The notes under the pieces: model-generated
The model's input: the letters and a program-made list of their open reading frames with translations, nothing else
Database searches by the model: none
Told to the model about the DNA's origin: nothing
Translations under genes and position numbers: made by a program
In this document: in pieces, positions 3,127 through 10,375 of the stretch
Layout: the number at the start of each line of letters is the position of its first letter
Numbering within the stretch: position 1 is the first letter of the stretch
Source of the DNA: Candidatus Heimdallarchaeota archaeon
Lineage (GTDB): Archaea; Asgardarchaeota; Heimdallarchaeia; Heimdallarchaeales; Heimdallarchaeaceae
Length of the DNA: 13,770 nucleotides
Direction of reading: 5' to 3'
Assembly (NCBI GenBank): GCA_021399395.1
Contig: JAAFKJ010000107.1
Coordinates: 1-13,770, forward strand

Positions 3127-3218
3127 GATAAGATTTAAAAACAAACAATCTTTGATGTATTTTAGTTCTGACCACGTTGACCGTTGGTTAAAGTTTCAAC
3201 GGAAGTGGTAGAGGCTGA
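3127..3218 (+). promoter_or_regulatory. Promoter and structured 5' leader of the rpl1-rpl10-rpl12 operon
   Basis: TTTAAAAA at 3134-3141. Hairpin ACCAC(3171-3175)/GTGGT(3205-3209) plus CCGTTG(3181-3186)/CAACGG(3197-3202). SD-like GAGGCTGA at 3211-3218 before ATG 3223. Confidence 0.55.
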
Positions 3219-3222
3219 TATT

Positions 3223-3861
3223 ATGGTAGAACAAGAACTTAAAAGTGCAATTGAGAAGATGAAAGATGAGTCTCCTTCTCGTAAATTTGTTGAATCAGTT
3301 GATGTTGCAATCAATCTCAAAGACGTAAATCTTCAAGATCCCTCAAAGAGGTTTCAAATGGAGGTTCATCTTCCTCATCCTTTGGAGAAGGAAGTAAAAG
3401 TTTGTGTCTTAGGAGAAGGCCGTCATCTGGTAGAAGCAGAACCAATTGCTTCTCGAGTGATTAACAAAGATGAACTGGACAACATAAGTAGAGAACCTAA
3501 GTTAGCTAAGAAGCTAGCGCAGGAGTACGACTACTTTATTGCAACAGCATCTTTGATGCCAACAATTGGTCGTAGTTTAGGTAAAGTATTAGGCCCTAGA
3601 GGTAAAATGCCTAAACCGGTACCCCCCACTGCACCTATTGAACCATTGATTAAAAACTATCAATCTATTGTACAAATACGACTTAGACAATCTCCTGTTA
3701 TCCATGCTCGTATAGCTACTGCAGCTATGGATAATGAAGCTATCGCAGAAAACGTTTTGGCCGTTCTTCGAAATGTCGAAAATAGACTTGAAAAAGGCTC
3801 AAACAACATTCGATCAATTTACGTTAAAACTACAATGGGCCCCCCAATAAAAGTAAAGTAG
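3223..3861 (+). CDS. rpl1: 50S ribosomal protein uL1
   Basis: RKFVESVDVAINLK, YDYFIA, LGKVLGPRGKMPKP and SIYVKTTMGP are uL1 hallmarks. Start moved from the TTG at 3184 to the ATG at 3223 (MVEQELK), which follows an SD-like motif. Confidence 0.97.
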   Translation: MVEQELKSAIEKMKDESPSRKFVESVDVAINLKDVNLQDPSKRFQMEVHLPHPLEKEVKVCVLGEGRHLVEAEPIASRVINKDELDNISREPKLAKKLAQEYDYFIATASLMPTIGRSLGKVLGPRGKMPKPVPPTAPIEPLIKNYQSIVQIRLRQSPVIHARIATAAMDNEAIAENVLAVLRNVENRLEKGSNNIRSIYVKTTMGPPIKVK

Positions 3862-3869
3862 GTGGATAA

Positions 3870-4880
3870 ATGTCAAATGTAAAAGTTTCAGAAAAGAAAA
3901 AACAAATTGTTGAAAACTTAATAAATGATTTATCATCCTTCCCTATCATCGGTTTAGTCAAGGTAGACAATATCGATGCCAGCGTTGTACAACAAATGCG
4001 AAAAGATATGAGAAAAGAAGCAAAAATAGTCATGGCTAAAAACAGTCTGATGAAAATTGCAATCTCTGAACTGAAAAAGAAGATAAAAGGGATCGATAAA
4101 TTATCTGACTATATAGTGGGTTCTTGTGCGTTTCTACTTACAAATACCAATCCTTACAAGTTAGCAACTTTTATGGATGAGAATAAAGTCCCCGCACCAG
4201 CAAAAGCTGGGCAATACGCTCCTAACGATGTTATTATTCCTCCAATGAATACAGGTATTCCTCCTGGACCTGTAATTGCGGAATTACAATCTTTAGGATT
4301 AAAAACTAGAATTGAAGGCGGACAAATTCGTATAGTAGAGCCATCTGTTGTAACAAAAGAAGGAGAACGAGTTAATAGAACAGTTGCTCTTCTCTTAAGA
4401 AGATTGAATATCAATCCTTTTCAAGCTGGATTGAAATTCGTAATTGCTTTTGAAAGTGGAGAAATTATTCCTGGTGATTCATTAGTCCTTGACTATGAAC
4501 AATACAGGCAGAATGTACTCTGGGCTTATCAATCAGCAATGAATTTGGCGGTAAACTCACGTTTTATTACTAAACAAAGTTTATCCATGATTCTAACAAA
4601 TGCAAACCAATTTGCCTTAAATTTAGCAGTTAATGCAGGATTTCTAACTGAAAAATCATTACCTATAATACTTTCTAAGGCAGTTCAAGGGTCACTTTCT
4701 GTTGCTGGTGCAATAGCAAATGTTGATTCCAGTGCATTGTCTGATGAAGCTCAAGCAAAATTCTCAGAAGTTCAAAAAGCACAACCAAAAGCTTCTGTCG
4801 TAGAAGAGAAACCCGAAGAACCAGAAGAAGAGGAAGATGAACCCGAGGAAGACCTGGGGTTAGGATCATTATTTGGATAA
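3870..4880 (+). CDS. rpl10: Acidic ribosomal stalk protein uL10/P0
   Basis: MAKNSLM, LLTNTNPYKL, APAKAG, NTGIPPGP, LRRLNINP and an acidic C-terminal tail ending GLGSLFG. SD AGGTGG at 3860-3865. Canonical position after rpl1. Confidence 0.97.
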   Translation: MSNVKVSEKKKQIVENLINDLSSFPIIGLVKVDNIDASVVQQMRKDMRKEAKIVMAKNSLMKIAISELKKKIKGIDKLSDYIVGSCAFLLTNTNPYKLATFMDENKVPAPAKAGQYAPNDVIIPPMNTGIPPGPVIAELQSLGLKTRIEGGQIRIVEPSVVTKEGERVNRTVALLLRRLNINPFQAGLKFVIAFESGEIIPGDSLVLDYEQYRQNVLWAYQSAMNLAVNSRFITKQSLSMILTNANQFALNLAVNAGFLTEKSLPIILSKAVQGSLSVAGAIANVDSSALSDEAQAKFSEVQKAQPKASVVEEKPEEPEEEEDEPEEDLGLGSLFG

Positions 4881-4890
4881 GGTGAAAAAT

Positions 4891-5193
4891 ATGGAATATG
4901 TATATGCAGCATTAGTACTTCATGAATTAAAACAAAAAGTTACTCAAGCAAAAGTAAAAGGAATACTTGAAGCCGCTGGAGCAACAGTAGATGAATCACG
5001 CATCAAAGCATTAGTAGCAGCTTTAAAAGAAGTTGATATTAATGAAGCATTGAAAACTACTGTTATGTCAGCTGCACCAGTTGCTGCTCCTGCCGCAGGA
5101 GCCGACAAAGCAGCCCCAGCAGAAGCTAAAGAAGAAAAGAAAGAAGAACCAGAAGAAGATACCGATTTGGGTCTAAGCGCTCTATTCGGATAA
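4891..5193 (+). CDS. rpl12: Acidic ribosomal stalk protein aP1 (L12p)
   Basis: MEYVYAALVLH N-terminus, Ala/Pro hinge and acidic tail ending GLSALFG. AAGGTGA SD at 4879-4885 supports ATG 4891 over the TTG at 4873. Confidence 0.97.
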   Translation: MEYVYAALVLHELKQKVTQAKVKGILEAAGATVDESRIKALVAALKEVDINEALKTTVMSAAPVAAPAAGADKAAPAEAKEEKKEEPEEDTDLGLSALFG

Positions 5194-5236
5194 TTAATCT
5201 TTTTTCCTTTCTTATTTTATTTTTTAATCTCTTTTT
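5194..5236 (+). terminator. U-rich archaeal-type terminator of the ribosomal protein operon
   Basis: Several T4-T6 runs directly after the rpl12 stop, in the gap between convergent operons. Confidence 0.55.
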
Positions 5237-5553
5237 TATTTATTTTTCAAAAAAACATTGAAAGCATCTACGATGTTATCGCATTTGTCTAGGGCATGAT
5301 ATATCTCTAGATGAGAAAATTCTGATTCTTGATTAACGCTTGAACCAAGAGAAGCTGTTCTAGCTCTTCGAATATTTCCTCTACTATCCATTGAGATAAT
5401 TAGAGTATGATCATCAGCATGCATTAGAACGAAATTAAACAACTGGCTATCTCTTAGCTCTTCAAGTTGTTTCTTCTCGATTTTGCACTCAAGCATCTTG
5501 CCACAATGATCACAACTGAAGGTTTTGTGGATGTATTGTTTATTTTCTACCAT
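5236..5553 (-). CDS. Small putative Zn-binding protein (CxxC ... HxxxH ... DxxGxxR), 105 aa
   Basis: FSCDHCGK and MHADDHTLIISMDSRGNIRR. SD-like AAGGTG upstream of ATG. Last gene of the minus-strand cluster, 23 nt after the GTPase stop. Confidence 0.75.
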   Translation of the reverse strand: MVENKQYIHKTFSCDHCGKMLECKIEKKQLEELRDSQLFNFVLMHADDHTLIISMDSRGNIRRARTASLGSSVNQESEFSHLEIYHALDKCDNIVDAFNVFLKNK

Positions 5554-5576
5554 TTTTATGCACCTTGGTTAATTCG

Positions 5577-6182
5577 TTAGAAACTTGGATACTTTGATAT
5601 TAGCTCATCAGCTAGATTCTGTTCTTTATTCAGGATTTGGTCAACAACATACTCGAAAGGTTCTGACACATTACCTGATAATAAACCACTAACAAGAAAG
5701 TGTTTTTTGATATTATAATTTTTCATAAAATCATGGATGTCTTCAATCGATACTTCAACTTGTTCTAAGTCAAGTTTATTTCCTACAAGCACTTCTGGTA
5801 CATTTGGATAAAAATGATTTGCTAAATAATTCCTAGTTAGATCAACAAATTCGTGTAGATATGCAAGGGTCTCAATGTCCGTTATATCGTACACATACAT
5901 TACACCTTTTACACCTCGTAAGAACACATCAATCATGAATCTAAATTGTTTCTGTCCTGCGAAATCCCAAATTTGTAAGGTAACAGTTTTACCTTGATGT
6001 ATTAATCGCTTTACTGTTATATCCACACCTTTTGTCATTGAAATCTGGTCAATGTCGTTTAATTCGCCTGAGTAGCTTTTTGAGATTGTGGTCTTTCCGA
6101 CAGATCCTAAACCCAATACTGCGACTTTTAGTATGCTTTCATTCTTTGTACTGTGAGGGAGCATTGTATTCATCATCATCAT
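5577..6182 (-). CDS. Ras-superfamily (Rab-like) small GTPase
   Basis: G1 GLGSVGKT, switch I MTKGVDI, G3 LQIWDFAGQKQFR, VYDITD, G4 VGNKLDL and a divergent G5 (VSG). No C-terminal prenylation Cys. The exact start is ambiguous among four tandem ATGs (6171-6182). Confidence 0.92.
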   Translation of the reverse strand: MMMMNTMLPHSTKNESILKVAVLGLGSVGKTTISKSYSGELNDIDQISMTKGVDITVKRLIHQGKTVTLQIWDFAGQKQFRFMIDVFLRGVKGVMYVYDITDIETLAYLHEFVDLTRNYLANHFYPNVPEVLVGNKLDLEQVEVSIEDIHDFMKNYNIKKHFLVSGLLSGNVSEPFEYVVDQILNKEQNLADELISKYPSF

Positions 6183-6197
6183 ATCCTAATAATAGAT

Positions 6198-7541
6198 TTA
6201 AAACACCACATTTTTTTGTGGTGATTTACTATATCCTGCAACCATTCCGTGTACAGAAACAGCTGCATATACTGGTTTGTGATTAATAACAGAAAATTCT
6301 CCTCCAGAATATAGTGTCATAAAGGGTATGTCTGTCCCTAGTGCTTCTGCAATCATCTTGTTCTCTTGTTCTGTTTTGTCTCCTGCTATTAACAATCTGT
6401 TACTACAATTAATGAAAAGACCAAAAACTGGATTATCTATTCCTTGAGCTGCTGATTTTGCACATTGATAAGCGGATTTTTGAACTCCTATACCTGATTG
6501 TGTACAAAATTCTGCTATTCTGTCACTTTCATCTAGAATTTCTTCTGGAATTGTTGATATAACGCCTTCTAAGATTGGATGACATACTGAAACAAAAGGT
6601 AGATTTCCTTGATCTTCTGATTTAAGTGTTGATAAATACAATAGCGAAGCGTAAGCAACTCCTTTGAATGCCTCTTCGTATAGGTTTTCAGGAATATCTA
6701 TAACATTGAGGAATTCTTCTTTAGATGGTTTATCATTTATTGTGTGGACATAACTGCTGCTTTTAAGACCGTTAGAAATCTCAAAAGTTTTAGATCTTTG
6801 TGATTTATCAAATGCCCAACTATGTCCAAAATTCAATGTGTCTGAAGAGAAGATGGTTCCTACCATTGCATTTTGGAAAACATTTTCACCTTGAAATTGA
6901 TAACACGATAGCATATCTAAATCAATTGTTGCTCCACCCAAAGTATTGCTTACACCATTTTCTAACAGTTTTTTTAGAATTTTATATGCAAATGAAGTTA
7001 CTCCATAACCGTTTTTGCCCATGTTTCTGTTAATCAGTTTTCCAATTTGGTTGAACATTCCTCGAAACTTATGAGCAAATATTGTATCAAGCATTTTCAT
7101 GCCATTAAAGGCGTCTGGTGGAAAATTCGGTCCTGGAGTTAGGAAGAATCCTGTTTTATTTTGCTTCTGGTCATCTTTGAATAACTTAACAAGTTTATCT
7201 GCACCTTTATTCGGGTTTAGTCTTATATTTGAATACGAAACAGGAGGCTGAAAATCTAATTCTGCTGACTTAAATGCCATTAACGAACAGCCTTGGGTTG
7301 TTGGTACATCATTTGATGTTGCAACTGCAGGAAATGTACCTCCAATGATATTATTTGTACCACTTTCTTCACAAATTTTTGCTATAGCTTTTTCATATTC
7401 TTTCTTCTCTCTATAATTTGGTGTATAAGCAGCAATCATAAAGTCAGGAGAACCATTAATGTCTCCAATTACATCATTAATGATTTGTTTAGTTGCAGTA
7501 TGGATGGATCTGTGACTTGTTGTTCCTGTTGCAATTTGCAT
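6198..7541 (-). CDS. FIST-domain (FIST_N + FIST_C) sensory protein, 447 aa
   Basis: PDFMIAAYTPNY, IIGGT, LGGATID, YQFQGENVFQNAMVG, FGHSW, VHTINDKP, LFINCSNR and PFMTLYSGGEF follow the FIST layout. SD GAGGTG upstream. Confidence 0.85.
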   Translation of the reverse strand: MQIATGTTSHRSIHTATKQIINDVIGDINGSPDFMIAAYTPNYREKKEYEKAIAKICEESGTNNIIGGTFPAVATSNDVPTTQGCSLMAFKSAELDFQPPVSYSNIRLNPNKGADKLVKLFKDDQKQNKTGFFLTPGPNFPPDAFNGMKMLDTIFAHKFRGMFNQIGKLINRNMGKNGYGVTSFAYKILKKLLENGVSNTLGGATIDLDMLSCYQFQGENVFQNAMVGTIFSSDTLNFGHSWAFDKSQRSKTFEISNGLKSSSYVHTINDKPSKEEFLNVIDIPENLYEEAFKGVAYASLLYLSTLKSEDQGNLPFVSVCHPILEGVISTIPEEILDESDRIAEFCTQSGIGVQKSAYQCAKSAAQGIDNPVFGLFINCSNRLLIAGDKTEQENKMIAEALGTDIPFMTLYSGGEFSVINHKPVYAAVSVHGMVAGYSKSPQKNVVF

Positions 7542-7550
7542 AAAAACACC

Positions 7551-7910
7551 TCACAGATAATTTACCAATAAGAGAGCTTTTCTCTTTGATTCTATTGATA
7601 ACAAACTTAAGTTTGCATTTTTGCTACTTATTGTTGTTAGGATTGTAATATTATTAACGACATAGAAGATTACACAGAACTCATTCAATTCATATGTGAC
7701 TTTGTTGAGGTTACCTGATTTCATTTCTAATGATACTTTGTCAACATTTGCTTTGCACCATTGAATTGTTCTAAGCAATTTATGGGAATATTTTTCCTTG
7801 AATGAAGAATCAACTACATTTCCATCAATACGAAATAAAATTGATGCTTCTACTTCATCCAGATGAGTTAAATCTTCTAGTTCAGAGTTAATTCCCGATT
7901 TAGAACTCAT
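7551..7910 (-). CDS. Roadblock/LC7 (MglB/LAMTOR-like) domain protein, 119 aa
   Basis: Helix-VEASILFRIDGNVVDS-helix-GNLNKVTYEL-three strands-ANLSLL C-terminal helix fits the Roadblock fold pattern. ATGA overlap with the upstream KaiC-like stop. Confidence 0.85.
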   Translation of the reverse strand: MSSKSGINSELEDLTHLDEVEASILFRIDGNVVDSSFKEKYSHKLLRTIQWCKANVDKVSLEMKSGNLNKVTYELNEFCVIFYVVNNITILTTISSKNANLSLLSIESKRKALLLVNYL

Positions 7911-8839
7911 TTCTTAACCTCTTGCAGTATTTGCTTATCAGTTAGAACTTCTACTAGTTCCATGTTTTGTATGGTATCCTTTTTCTCTCTTTCACCAAGA
8001 AGGTTTTTTGCAATTTGAGCTATTATTCGCTTCTTTGGATCTTTGTCCTTTGAAAGATCCTTCACTTTCTTCATTAGTTCTTGATATCTGATATCATATA
8101 CTACAGTATCCATAGCAACTGTTTCAACAGAACTAGTATCAATAGCAATACCTGGTCCATTAACAAAATTCAGAGGATATATTCCTTCATGGTGTGGAGT
8201 TTTACGAGATTTTATAATTTTACAAGTACGATTATATTTTCCACCTAATCCCAAGTTTTGAATATGAACTACGCTATCTGATAAGTATATAGGAACTCTT
8301 GTTTCTGTAGCTCCAATATCTGTCTGTCCAAATGCATTTGGTTCTTCAATAGTTTGTAGAACAGTTCCCAAAGAACTTAGATGCTGATAGATTTTTGTTA
8401 AAACCTTTCTTTGTTCTTTTTCTGATGGAAATTCCCACAAAATAGGAGTTAATGGATCTAAAACTATCCTTGTATGTTTAACATTCCTGTGTTTAAGCTT
8501 CTGTGCTAAAGCTGGAAGAATATTTGTCATAAATTCAACAATTTTTTCACTTTCTACTAGATGGATTAAATCTTCTGAGTCATTTGTTAACCCTCTAATA
8601 TCTATACCTAGAGCTTCAGCTTCACCGATAAGTTTAGACGGTGTTTCTTCAAACGACAAGTATAGTGTATGGTCACCGTTTAGCAAGCCTTGATATAAAT
8701 ATGCTAAAGCAAAAGTAGTTTTTCCTGTTCCGCTACTTCCAACTATTGAGTTAACTGAATTCTTAATCATTCCACCTTGTAAGAGTACATCAATACCCTC
8801 TATACCAGAGGAAATTCTTTCAGTGTTTATCATTGACAT
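7907..8839 (-). CDS. Single-domain KaiC/RAD55/GvpD-family ATPase with a C-terminal helical extension, 310 aa
   Basis: RISSGIEGIDVLLQGG, Walker A GSSGTGKT, catalytic YLSFEE, Walker B RIVLDPLT, YLSDSVV and KxR finger IIKSRKTPH. TATA-like TTTATTTA upstream (8862-8869, minus strand). Confidence 0.9.
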   Translation of the reverse strand: MSMINTERISSGIEGIDVLLQGGMIKNSVNSIVGSSGTGKTTFALAYLYQGLLNGDHTLYLSFEETPSKLIGEAEALGIDIRGLTNDSEDLIHLVESEKIVEFMTNILPALAQKLKHRNVKHTRIVLDPLTPILWEFPSEKEQRKVLTKIYQHLSSLGTVLQTIEEPNAFGQTDIGATETRVPIYLSDSVVHIQNLGLGGKYNRTCKIIKSRKTPHHEGIYPLNFVNGPGIAIDTSSVETVAMDTVVYDIRYQELMKKVKDLSKDKDPKKRIIAQIAKNLLGEREKKDTIQNMELVEVLTDKQILQEVKK

Positions 8840-8994
8840 CTATATTTATATCCAAACAAGCTAAATAAACTCCACAATTTCCTTTTTGCAGTTCTATTGC
8901 TATTAGGTTGTGATTCTTCGTGAAATTTTGGGATTTTATTAATCAACGAGGGGAACATTTTATAATAGAATCAAATCTAATTTCTTCGAGAACT

Positions 8995-9940: not shown

Positions 9941-10375
9941 ATGGCCAGAAAAATACCATGGTTATTTCCAGGAATAAGAAGACCTAGTTTCAGTTTACAT
10001 CAGGTATCTATACGTATCCCTACCCGTATTCCCATAAGTGTTCTGTATGTTTTGATTTATGCAGTCATTTTCTATATCTTTGCAGGTGGGGCTTATATGT
10101 TAGTCAATAAAGACAATTTAATCAGTATTGGTCAATATGGAAATACCCCTCAATTCATAGCTCGTTCTCTACATTTGCAATATCTGATAGAGGGATTAGT
10201 AGCAGGTTTTATCTTTTCATTTGCTGCACTAAGTTTGTATCTGTTTGATTATGCAACAAGATATGCTTTCGATGTTAGTACAGCACAAAAAGTTGAGTTA
10301 ATTGCCACATTATTAATTGTTATCTGGTATGTTGCTATTTTACTGATATTCAGGGCAAAAACGGCAACAGGATAA
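9941..10375 (+). CDS. OST3/OST6-family, OSTC/DC2-like oligosaccharyltransferase subunit (3 TM), 144 aa
   Basis: Three TM helices. FIARSLHLQYLIEGLVAGFIFSFAALSLYLFD aligns by eye with human OSTC as recalled ([32 protein letters not shown]). Also shares the GGxxY motif at the end of TM1, a basic C-terminal FRAK and similar length. Confidence 0.8.
   Translation: MARKIPWLFPGIRRPSFSLHQVSIRIPTRIPISVLYVLIYAVIFYIFAGGAYMLVNKDNLISIGQYGNTPQFIARSLHLQYLIEGLVAGFIFSFAALSLYLFDYATRYAFDVSTAQKVELIATLLIVIWYVAILLIFRAKTATG

Follow-up and report, generated by a model that had tools for sequence, protein, structure and literature searches.

Do the five genes read from the minus strand at positions 5236-8839 of a contig from a Candidatus Heimdallarchaeota archaeon form one functional module, and what kind of switch would such a module encode? 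The window analysed here, 13,770 nucleotides long, is the entire contig JAAFKJ010000107.1. It belongs to a 2.8-Mb genome that is 82% complete and comes from Heimdallarchaeaceae, the family of AB_125 and Ca. Heimdallarchaeum. In the order of transcription, the genes encode a KaiC-like ATPase, a Roadblock protein, a protein with FIST domains, a Rab-like GTPase and a small protein with a probable zinc site. An earlier note on this DNA had read them as a self-contained, kinase-free circuit of ligand sensor, KaiC hub, Roadblock regulator, GTPase switch and small effector. We conclude that the five genes almost certainly constitute a real functional module. That they work as a cytoplasmic sensor–platform–GTPase signalling switch of Heimdallarchaeia is a reading for which we see the balance as about even.

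A FIST homologue is present in 27 of 30 genomes of the same family. The order of the five genes is identical in all 24 untruncated same-family loci detected with tblastn, which span five genera and FIST identities down to 44%, and four loci cut by a contig end carry the expected part of the cluster. Loci taken from named records kept the order in 22/22 untruncated cases, although they stem largely from the same set of genomes and are not independent. Within the window's genus, conservation alone proves little because the entire neighbourhood is syntenic there, flanks and ribosomal genes included. This shared neighbourhood speaks for an explanation in which unrelated genes that do not act together have merely been inherited side by side. 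We consider that explanation scarcely credible. Outside the genus, the ribosomal-stalk neighbour is gone and the cluster is intact; the core genes recur in a different order in two other families; genes of the cluster overlap; and a model of the FIST–Roadblock complex, described below, passes with clean controls. The earlier note had named gene-neighbourhood conservation as a check on its proposal, and such conservation was found, in the order kept in 24 of 24 loci and in the rearranged core of the two other families. Functional linkage is strong, given an order kept across five genera with changing flanks, the Hodarchaeales core and the FIST–Roadblock model. The cluster also turned up outside the family, in 1 of 11 genomes of f6, on a 6.8-kb contig (L019, G048:C96). 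Its identities are typical of the window's genus (KaiC 79%, FIST 58%), and mis-binning of this contig seems more probable than gene transfer.

In a phylum-wide scan of 301 genomes, FIST relatives were detected in 25 of the 28 genomes of the window's family (f1) and in all 21 genomes of a Hodarchaeales-type family (f5). A further eight were found among the 68 genomes of a large family, f14, and one genome each in four further families contained a relative, while the remaining 23 families scanned yielded none (0/76 genomes, for example, in one of them). Hodarchaeales-type loci have the order GTPase–KaiC–Roadblock–FIST–major facilitator superfamily (MFS) transporter, and their FIST proteins are 22-26% identical to that of the window. 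Of the 13 such loci with upstream sequence, all have Roadblock directly upstream of FIST, 12 have KaiC and 10 have an intact GTPase. An MFS gene stands downstream of FIST in all 15 with downstream sequence. A third Asgard family (f22) carries KaiC–Roadblock–FIST–MFS; the Pfam MFS_1 family was confirmed on its MFS gene and on three of the Hodarchaeales-type ones. In the window genome, the module gene is the clear best match of each of the Hodarchaeales KaiC, Roadblock and FIST proteins. The invariant core is KaiC–Roadblock–FIST; the GTPase is usual but dispensable and occupies two positions, and the last gene varies. This core replaces the Roadblock–GTPase pair that the earlier note had made the central unit, the GTPase being downstream in Heimdallarchaeaceae and upstream in Hodarchaeales. 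'Self-contained' also proved too strong a word, because the GTPase is dispensable and the last gene lineage-specific. As for the proposed small effector, it is specific to Heimdallarchaeaceae, an MFS transporter taking the last position in the other two families.

A core of this composition may also be read as an ATP-driven switch or timer centred on KaiC. Roadblock would then be a state-dependent KaiC partner, like KaiB or DEATH-like proteins, with FIST as the input and the GTPase as a lineage add-on. The three genes stay together in three families while the GTPase shifts or disappears, and the KaiC and Roadblock genes overlap. According to Makarova et al. 2016 (PMC4858521), KaiC-like ATPases typically act through a second signalling component, and for most archaeal systems this component has yet to be identified. 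Still, we find the KaiC-centred switch unlikely. One locus, L063, retains Roadblock–FIST–MFS with no KaiC adjoining, and in other Asgard families Roadblock-like open reading frames (ORFs) lie upstream of FIST without KaiC. Moreover, an intact GTPase is adjacent in every untruncated Heimdallarchaeaceae locus and in 10 of the 13 Hodarchaeales-type loci, and the KaiC–Roadblock contact is hypothetical.

For the sensor–platform–GTPase switch, we modelled the contact between FIST and Roadblock, the pair that is conserved most broadly and has the least precedent. Models of two Roadblock copies with one FIST scored 0.86, 0.85 and 0.86 in three runs, against 0.00 for the best of three controls. The runs shared at least 96% of their contacts, with a partner pLDDT (predicted local distance difference test) of at least 86. 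Of 80 solved complexes, 58 attain the mark used for such scores, as do 2 of 110 mismatched pairs; these counts are only approximate here given the custom alignments and the 2+1 chain design, in which the FIST interface alone was scored. Recall of a known structure is an unlikely cause of the score because no solved structure related to FIST was retrieved by profile (0 matches at E<=1). Complex modelling, another check named in the earlier note, thus gave this pair a high score with clean controls.

In the model, FIST contacts the Roadblock dimer at its 'bottom' face, a four-helix surface to which each subunit contributes two helices. On the Roadblock side, the interface is made by residues 12-19, 70 and 96-114, corresponding to the end of alpha1 and to alpha3, and the docking residues of FIST include the invariant 383-392 motif region. 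Invariant residues in the modelled interface are K70, N100, E107 and R110 of Roadblock and Q348, S349, I385, G387 and D388 of FIST. The alpha2 helix of Roadblock carries the invariant residues W51, K53 and E62 and is unoccupied in the complex model. According to Levine et al. 2013 (PMC3747258), GTPases bind the Roadblock 'top' face, which is formed by single alpha2 helices. On the strength of the model, FIST and Roadblock probably bind each other. A FIST–Roadblock2–GTPase sandwich, whose GTPase part we infer, would fit because FIST on the bottom face leaves the alpha2 top face free.

All five domain assignments made in the earlier note were upheld by family models, profiles, a structure model or invariant residues. 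The window's Roadblock protein matched no Pfam or NCBIfam model, PF03259 giving nothing at E<=0.1, and only 4 of its 16 relatives matched PF03259, weakly (best 7.4e-4). A profile built from 16 sequences and compared with the PDB retrieved the Thorarchaeota Roadblock 7f8m at 4.5e-8. The AlphaFold2 (AF2) model has a pLDDT of 93.6 and the Roadblock order of elements. Its top Foldseek matches are Roadblock, MglB, MglC and Ragulator/LAMTOR chains with probability 1.00, the MglB chains aligning at TM 0.78-0.80 with 11-16% sequence identity.

FIST_N (PF08495) was matched by the window's FIST protein with 27.5 bits (cut-off 23.2) and FIST_C (PF10442) with 26.3 bits, slightly below its cut-off of 28.5. 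Both domains were matched by 12 of 12 aligned relatives at E<=1e-3. No histidine is invariant in the 12-sequence alignment, and no FIST–Roadblock fusion was found among 47 clusters of 239-804 aa.

The KaiC-like protein matched PF06745 over residues 10-234 (2.2e-35; 122.5 bits, cut-off 26.6). It contains GSSGTGKTT, the Glu of an SFEE motif and a further Asp, which we take to be the Walker A motif, the catalytic Glu and the Walker B Asp, respectively. Fourteen sequences all share G37, G39, K40, T42, E64 and D128. This is not a circadian KaiC, having one domain and 310 aa versus the duplicated CI and CII domains of about 500 aa, and its scores against the circadian equivalog models are far from their cut-offs (NF006799, 113.7 bits versus 408; TIGR02655, 77.3 versus 546). 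An ArlH/FlaH-like NCBIfam match is weak (6.7e-10; 39 bits versus a cut-off of 215). The protein ends in a conserved tail, which was seen in Heimdallarchaeaceae and in the f22 locus; Hodarchaeales KaiC proteins lack it.

The closest solved relatives of the GTPase are Rab43, Ypt1, Rab12 and Rab7 (1.7e-21 to 1e-18), followed by a Thorarchaeota Rab, 7ezb (5e-17). Its G motifs are intact and invariant in 13 sequences (GxGxVGKT, switch-I Thr50, WDxxGQ and NKxD). We call it 'Rab-like' rather than Rab because a C-terminal, prenylatable cysteine is missing from all 13 aligned sequences. It is no Rag/Gtr protein either, as it has no C-terminal Roadblock domain and scores 27.4 bits with Gtr1_RagA versus 102.3 with Ras. 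Judging from their invariant catalytic motifs, the GTPase and KaiC are both predicted to be active enzymes.

With these identities, a polarity or motility switch of the MglA/MglB type has to be considered, in which Roadblock would be the GTPase-activating protein (GAP) and KaiC would resemble the archaellum/pilus regulator ArlH. The placing of the Roadblock model beside MglB and MglC by Foldseek agrees with it, as do the weak ArlH/FlaH-like matches of KaiC. In PMC4858521, KaiC-like ATPases and Roadblock proteins are each described as frequent in archaeal type IV pilus loci. Against this, no pilus or archaellum genes were found in the window or in the flanks examined, the GTPase best matches Rab-like and not MglA-like proteins, and Mgl systems have no counterpart of FIST, MFS or the zinc protein. 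We regard an Mgl-type switch as very improbable.

In the sensor–platform–GTPase switch that we prefer, FIST would be the input part, binding a small ligand while seated on the dimer's bottom face. The free top face, by which MglB, Ragulator and TRAPP hold small GTPases, would take up the Rab-like GTPase of the operon and control whether it carries GTP or GDP. KaiC, translationally coupled to Roadblock, may provide an ATP-dependent gate or assembly step, possibly with autophosphorylation. The output would differ by lineage, through the small C2H2 zinc protein in Heimdallarchaeaceae and through the MFS transporter in Hodarchaeales and in f22, where the MFS gene would point to control of, or by, solute uptake. 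All binding in the cell, the nature of the ligand, the course of the signal, its consequence for the GTPase and the part played by KaiC are steps that we infer.

A second conserved cluster surrounds a distant FIST gene in loci L079-L086 of families f14 and f27. It comprises a Roadblock-like gene (134-142 aa), a 311-323-aa protein with a Roadblock-like region, a gelsolin-like gene (172-193 aa), FIST, a LuxE acyl-protein synthetase and a LuxC acyl-CoA reductase. Its Roadblock assignments are sub-threshold (Pfam 6e-4 to 7.5e-3). The cluster shows the Roadblock–FIST linkage recurring in a different context.

Alternatively, FIST and Roadblock may be accessories of transport or metabolism that regulate or partner a solute transporter or an acyl pathway, the GTPase and KaiC being ancillary and no switch cascade existing. 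The constant position of the MFS gene after FIST in Hodarchaeales-type loci and in f22 is consistent with this, and so is the position of FIST between gelsolin-like and LuxE/LuxC genes in other Asgard families. However, the Heimdallarchaeaceae cluster contains no MFS gene, and tblastn at 1e-5 detected no homologue of the Hodarchaeales MFS in the window genome, which is 82% complete. The catalytic motifs of the GTPase and KaiC are also strongly conserved. An accessory role of this kind is, in our judgement, quite unlikely.

Several observations nonetheless weigh against the sensor–platform–GTPase switch. The GTPase is missing in L063 and L074 and reduced to a remnant in L075 (3 of 13 Hodarchaeales-type loci), and the f22 cluster has none, so a neighbouring GTPase is not needed for the core to work. 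Nor does sequence comparison support a common origin of the GTPase link in the two families, although it does not firmly reject one. The Hodarchaeales GTPase matches four paralogues of the window genome about equally, and the window genome contains 31 GTPase-like ORFs. In a maximum-likelihood tree whose only paralogues were the 18 ORFs of the window genome with E<1e-15, the module GTPases of Heimdallarchaeaceae and Hodarchaeales are not sisters (split support 92/80). At the modelled interface, the overlap with invariant residues is modest (5/30 in FIST and 4/14 in Roadblock). Small-ligand sensing by FIST domains is a proposal from the literature, which makes this protein a candidate sensor only. 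The neighbourhood of FIST with LuxE and LuxC in other Asgard families could indicate a metabolic rather than a sensory role.

A bolder form of the same reading makes the operon a prokaryotic design counterpart of the eukaryotic Roadblock nutrient switch. It would combine a metabolite-loaded FIST, a Roadblock dimer, a dedicated GTPase, KaiC-gated assembly and, in Hodarchaeales, an MFS 'transceptor' that completes the loop. We put this forward as doubtful. Heimdallarchaeaceae and Hodarchaeales are the groups placed closest to eukaryotes. If the proposal were true, their nearest archaeal lineage would have possessed nutrient signalling through Roadblock, GTPase and transporter, and FIST–Roadblock would be a new sensor–platform pairing.

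The last gene of the window's operon encodes a protein of 105 aa. Every one of 13 orthologues has C14, C17, H45 and H49, and all eight remote relatives listed keep C-x2-C and two downstream His, with a His spacing from x2 to x8. This Cys2-His2 set is probably a zinc site. The family is tiny, with 11 cluster representatives at E<=1e-3 among 1.84 billion, and protein atlas matches were confined to unnamed Promethearchaeota clusters. No Pfam family was matched. The AF2 model is middling (pLDDT 72), and no fold was assigned because a wide VIA search gave a best Z of only 3.5, with none at 5 or above. One remote relative had a sub-threshold match to the Brz zinc ribbon (7e-4), which is a lead only. 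An Elf1 identity was rejected, the NCBIfam match (0.013) being at chance level. Likewise, the longer relatives P0009 and P0010 were considered as fusions of the zinc domain to a Roadblock-like domain and discarded (hhalign probability <1%).

The operon layout described in the earlier note agrees with the ORF coordinates. The five genes are co-oriented with spacings of -4 (an ATGA overlap), 9, 15 and 23 nt, the last being the largest gap. The cluster is convergent with the L1-L10-P1 ribosomal stalk genes, and the two facing stop codons lie 42 nt apart. In L031, the KaiC/Roadblock overlap of start and stop is 20 nt, compared with 4 nt in the window, and Roadblock and FIST overlap by 4 nt. Shine–Dalgarno (SD)-like motifs (GAGGT/GAGGTG/AGGA/AGGTG-like) precede all four internal genes; the first gene, KaiC, instead has a TATA-like box upstream. 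Both signals had been reported in the earlier note, and the box lies inside a block conserved among same-family loci (Table 1). The block is looser in the other 3 of the 16 loci compared, reading gtgttgagtttattta in L028 and ggcctttatata in L025 and L026. Its position, together with SD-like motifs on the internal genes only, suggests that the KaiC mRNA is leaderless or has a very short leader. This arrangement also fits a single promoter upstream of KaiC that would serve all five genes in a putative common transcript.

Table 1. Coordinates of the operon, its promoter elements and neighbouring or related features. Positions without a locus prefix are those of the window.
Feature	Position	Strand	Details
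KaiC-like ATPase, 310 aa	7907-8839	-	RecA superfamily, single domain; PF06745
C-terminal tail of KaiC, about 75 aa	7907-8131	-	residues about 237-310; SKDKDPKK...LTDxQILQEVKK
Roadblock/LC7-fold protein, 119 aa	7551-7910	-	profile, AF2, Foldseek; start overlaps KaiC stop (ATGA)
Stand-alone FIST_N + FIST_C protein, 447 aa	6198-7541	-	PF08495 + PF10442; putative ligand sensor
Rab-like small GTPase, 201 aa	5577-6182	-	G domain only; Ras family 2.7e-29
Small protein, 105 aa	5236-5553	-	predicted zinc site, C14-x2-C17...H45-x3-H49
Promoter block aaattgtggagTTTATTTAgc, about 21 nt	8861..8880	-	near-identical in 13/16 Heimdallarchaeaceae loci listed
TATA-like TTTATTTA	8862-8869	-	-30 to -23 from KaiC ATG; inside aaattgtggagTTTATTTAgc block
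L1-L10-P1 ribosomal stalk genes	3184-5193	+	
HerA/DUF87-type ATPase, 947 aa	258-3101	+	upstream of L1-L10-P1
Winged-helix-repeat protein, 277 aa	8920-9753	+	divergent from the operon
OST3/OST6-like membrane protein	9941-10375	+	5.3e-6, slightly below cut-off
Short Rad51/RadB-like ATPase, 210 aa	10378-11010	-	PF08423, 1.6e-12
MFS gene	L031:8506-9954		
MFS gene	L063:5346-6785		
MFS gene	L075:5368-6711		
MFS gene	L078:6999-8213		f22
161-aa protein	L078:3353-3838	-	f22; divergent, upstream of KaiC
Cluster around a distant FIST	L082:3495-9893		example from L079-L086

Some neighbouring genes may be relevant to the operon. The winged-helix-repeat protein encoded divergently beside KaiC gave weak Pfam matches to E3_UFM1_ligase (3.9e-6), PCI and DDRGK. 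Its gene adjoins KaiC in four of the five other-genus loci with upstream sequence, once on the same strand (L057), and is replaced by an unrelated gene in L058. As a candidate sixth member of the cluster, this protein may regulate the operon, or it may belong to a UFM1-like system of Asgard archaea; an Asgard Ufm1 candidate is mentioned in PMC12962969. The OST3/OST6-like and Rad51/RadB-like genes are syntenic within the genus, where the HerA/DUF87-type gene also keeps its position. The 161-aa protein of the f22 locus had a sub-threshold match to Fuz_longin_1 (1.4e-4).

Asgard genomes encode dozens of small GTPases and of Roadblock/longin proteins. In MK-D1, GTPase genes generally share no operon with Roadblock genes, which makes the matching of GTPases to their regulators from genome layout difficult (Tran et al. 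2024, PMC10933270). A conserved pairing is useful because these genes generally lie apart there. The operon offers one such GTPase–regulator match in Heimdallarchaeaceae and Hodarchaeales, with FIST as candidate input, an ATPase and lineage-specific outputs. Since its proteins are small and soluble and the interface residues are modelled, sensing by an Asgard GTPase switch becomes testable in vitro. FIST domains and archaeal KaiC-like ATPases would each gain a defined partner. Neither the KaiC, Roadblock and FIST set nor a FIST–Roadblock complex is described in the full-text literature searched, supplementary tables being outside its scope, and the accessible parts of PMC12962969 and PMC6393860 contain nothing on the operon.

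Individual parts of the operon resemble several known systems. NosP is a stand-alone FIST protein, and the operon's FIST likewise consists of FIST_N and FIST_C with no other domain; unlike NosP, it has a Roadblock partner, no histidine kinase or c-di-GMP partner and no invariant His. Makarova, Galperin and Koonin reportedly described archaeal KaiC-like ATPases in 2017 as signalling hubs, with ArlH/FlaH and CirA among them. The operon matches this pattern in that a single-domain KaiC-family ATPase is encoded with putative input and output proteins. It differs from the circadian Kai system, its KaiC reaching 77-114 bits versus cut-offs of 408-546 and being accompanied by no KaiB. In MglA–MglB, a bacterial Ras-like GTPase with a Roadblock-dimer GAP, a stand-alone Roadblock protein is also encoded with a small GTPase, whereas the operon's GTPase is Rab-like and nothing in Mgl systems corresponds to KaiC, FIST and the zinc protein or MFS. 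Liu et al. (bioRxiv 10.1101/2020.10.19.343400) describe a conserved Asgard operon of a LAMTOR1-like Roadblock, a Rab-like GTPase and a DENN protein, for which regulation of the GTPase was proposed. Both operons join a Roadblock-superfamily protein to a Rab-like GTPase. The partner there is DENN, its place being taken here by KaiC, FIST and either the zinc protein or MFS, and that operon is said to be conserved in most Asgard archaea, whereas the present cluster characterizes two families (25/28 and 21/21 genomes) and is sporadic elsewhere.

The eukaryotic nutrient-sensing machinery Ragulator/LAMTOR–Rag–SLC38A9 is similar in that it brings together a Roadblock dimer, small GTPases, a putative ligand sensor and a transporter, the last encoded by the operon in Hodarchaeales. 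This is an analogy rather than a demonstrated homology of the systems. FIST and KaiC have no Ragulator counterpart, and no membrane anchor is evident here. A Ragulator-like use of two faces is predicted for the operon's Roadblock dimer, and it fits the platform rule of Levine et al. 2013. Roadblock–GTPase pairs and KaiC hubs are already known, and the operon is a new combination built from known kinds of parts.

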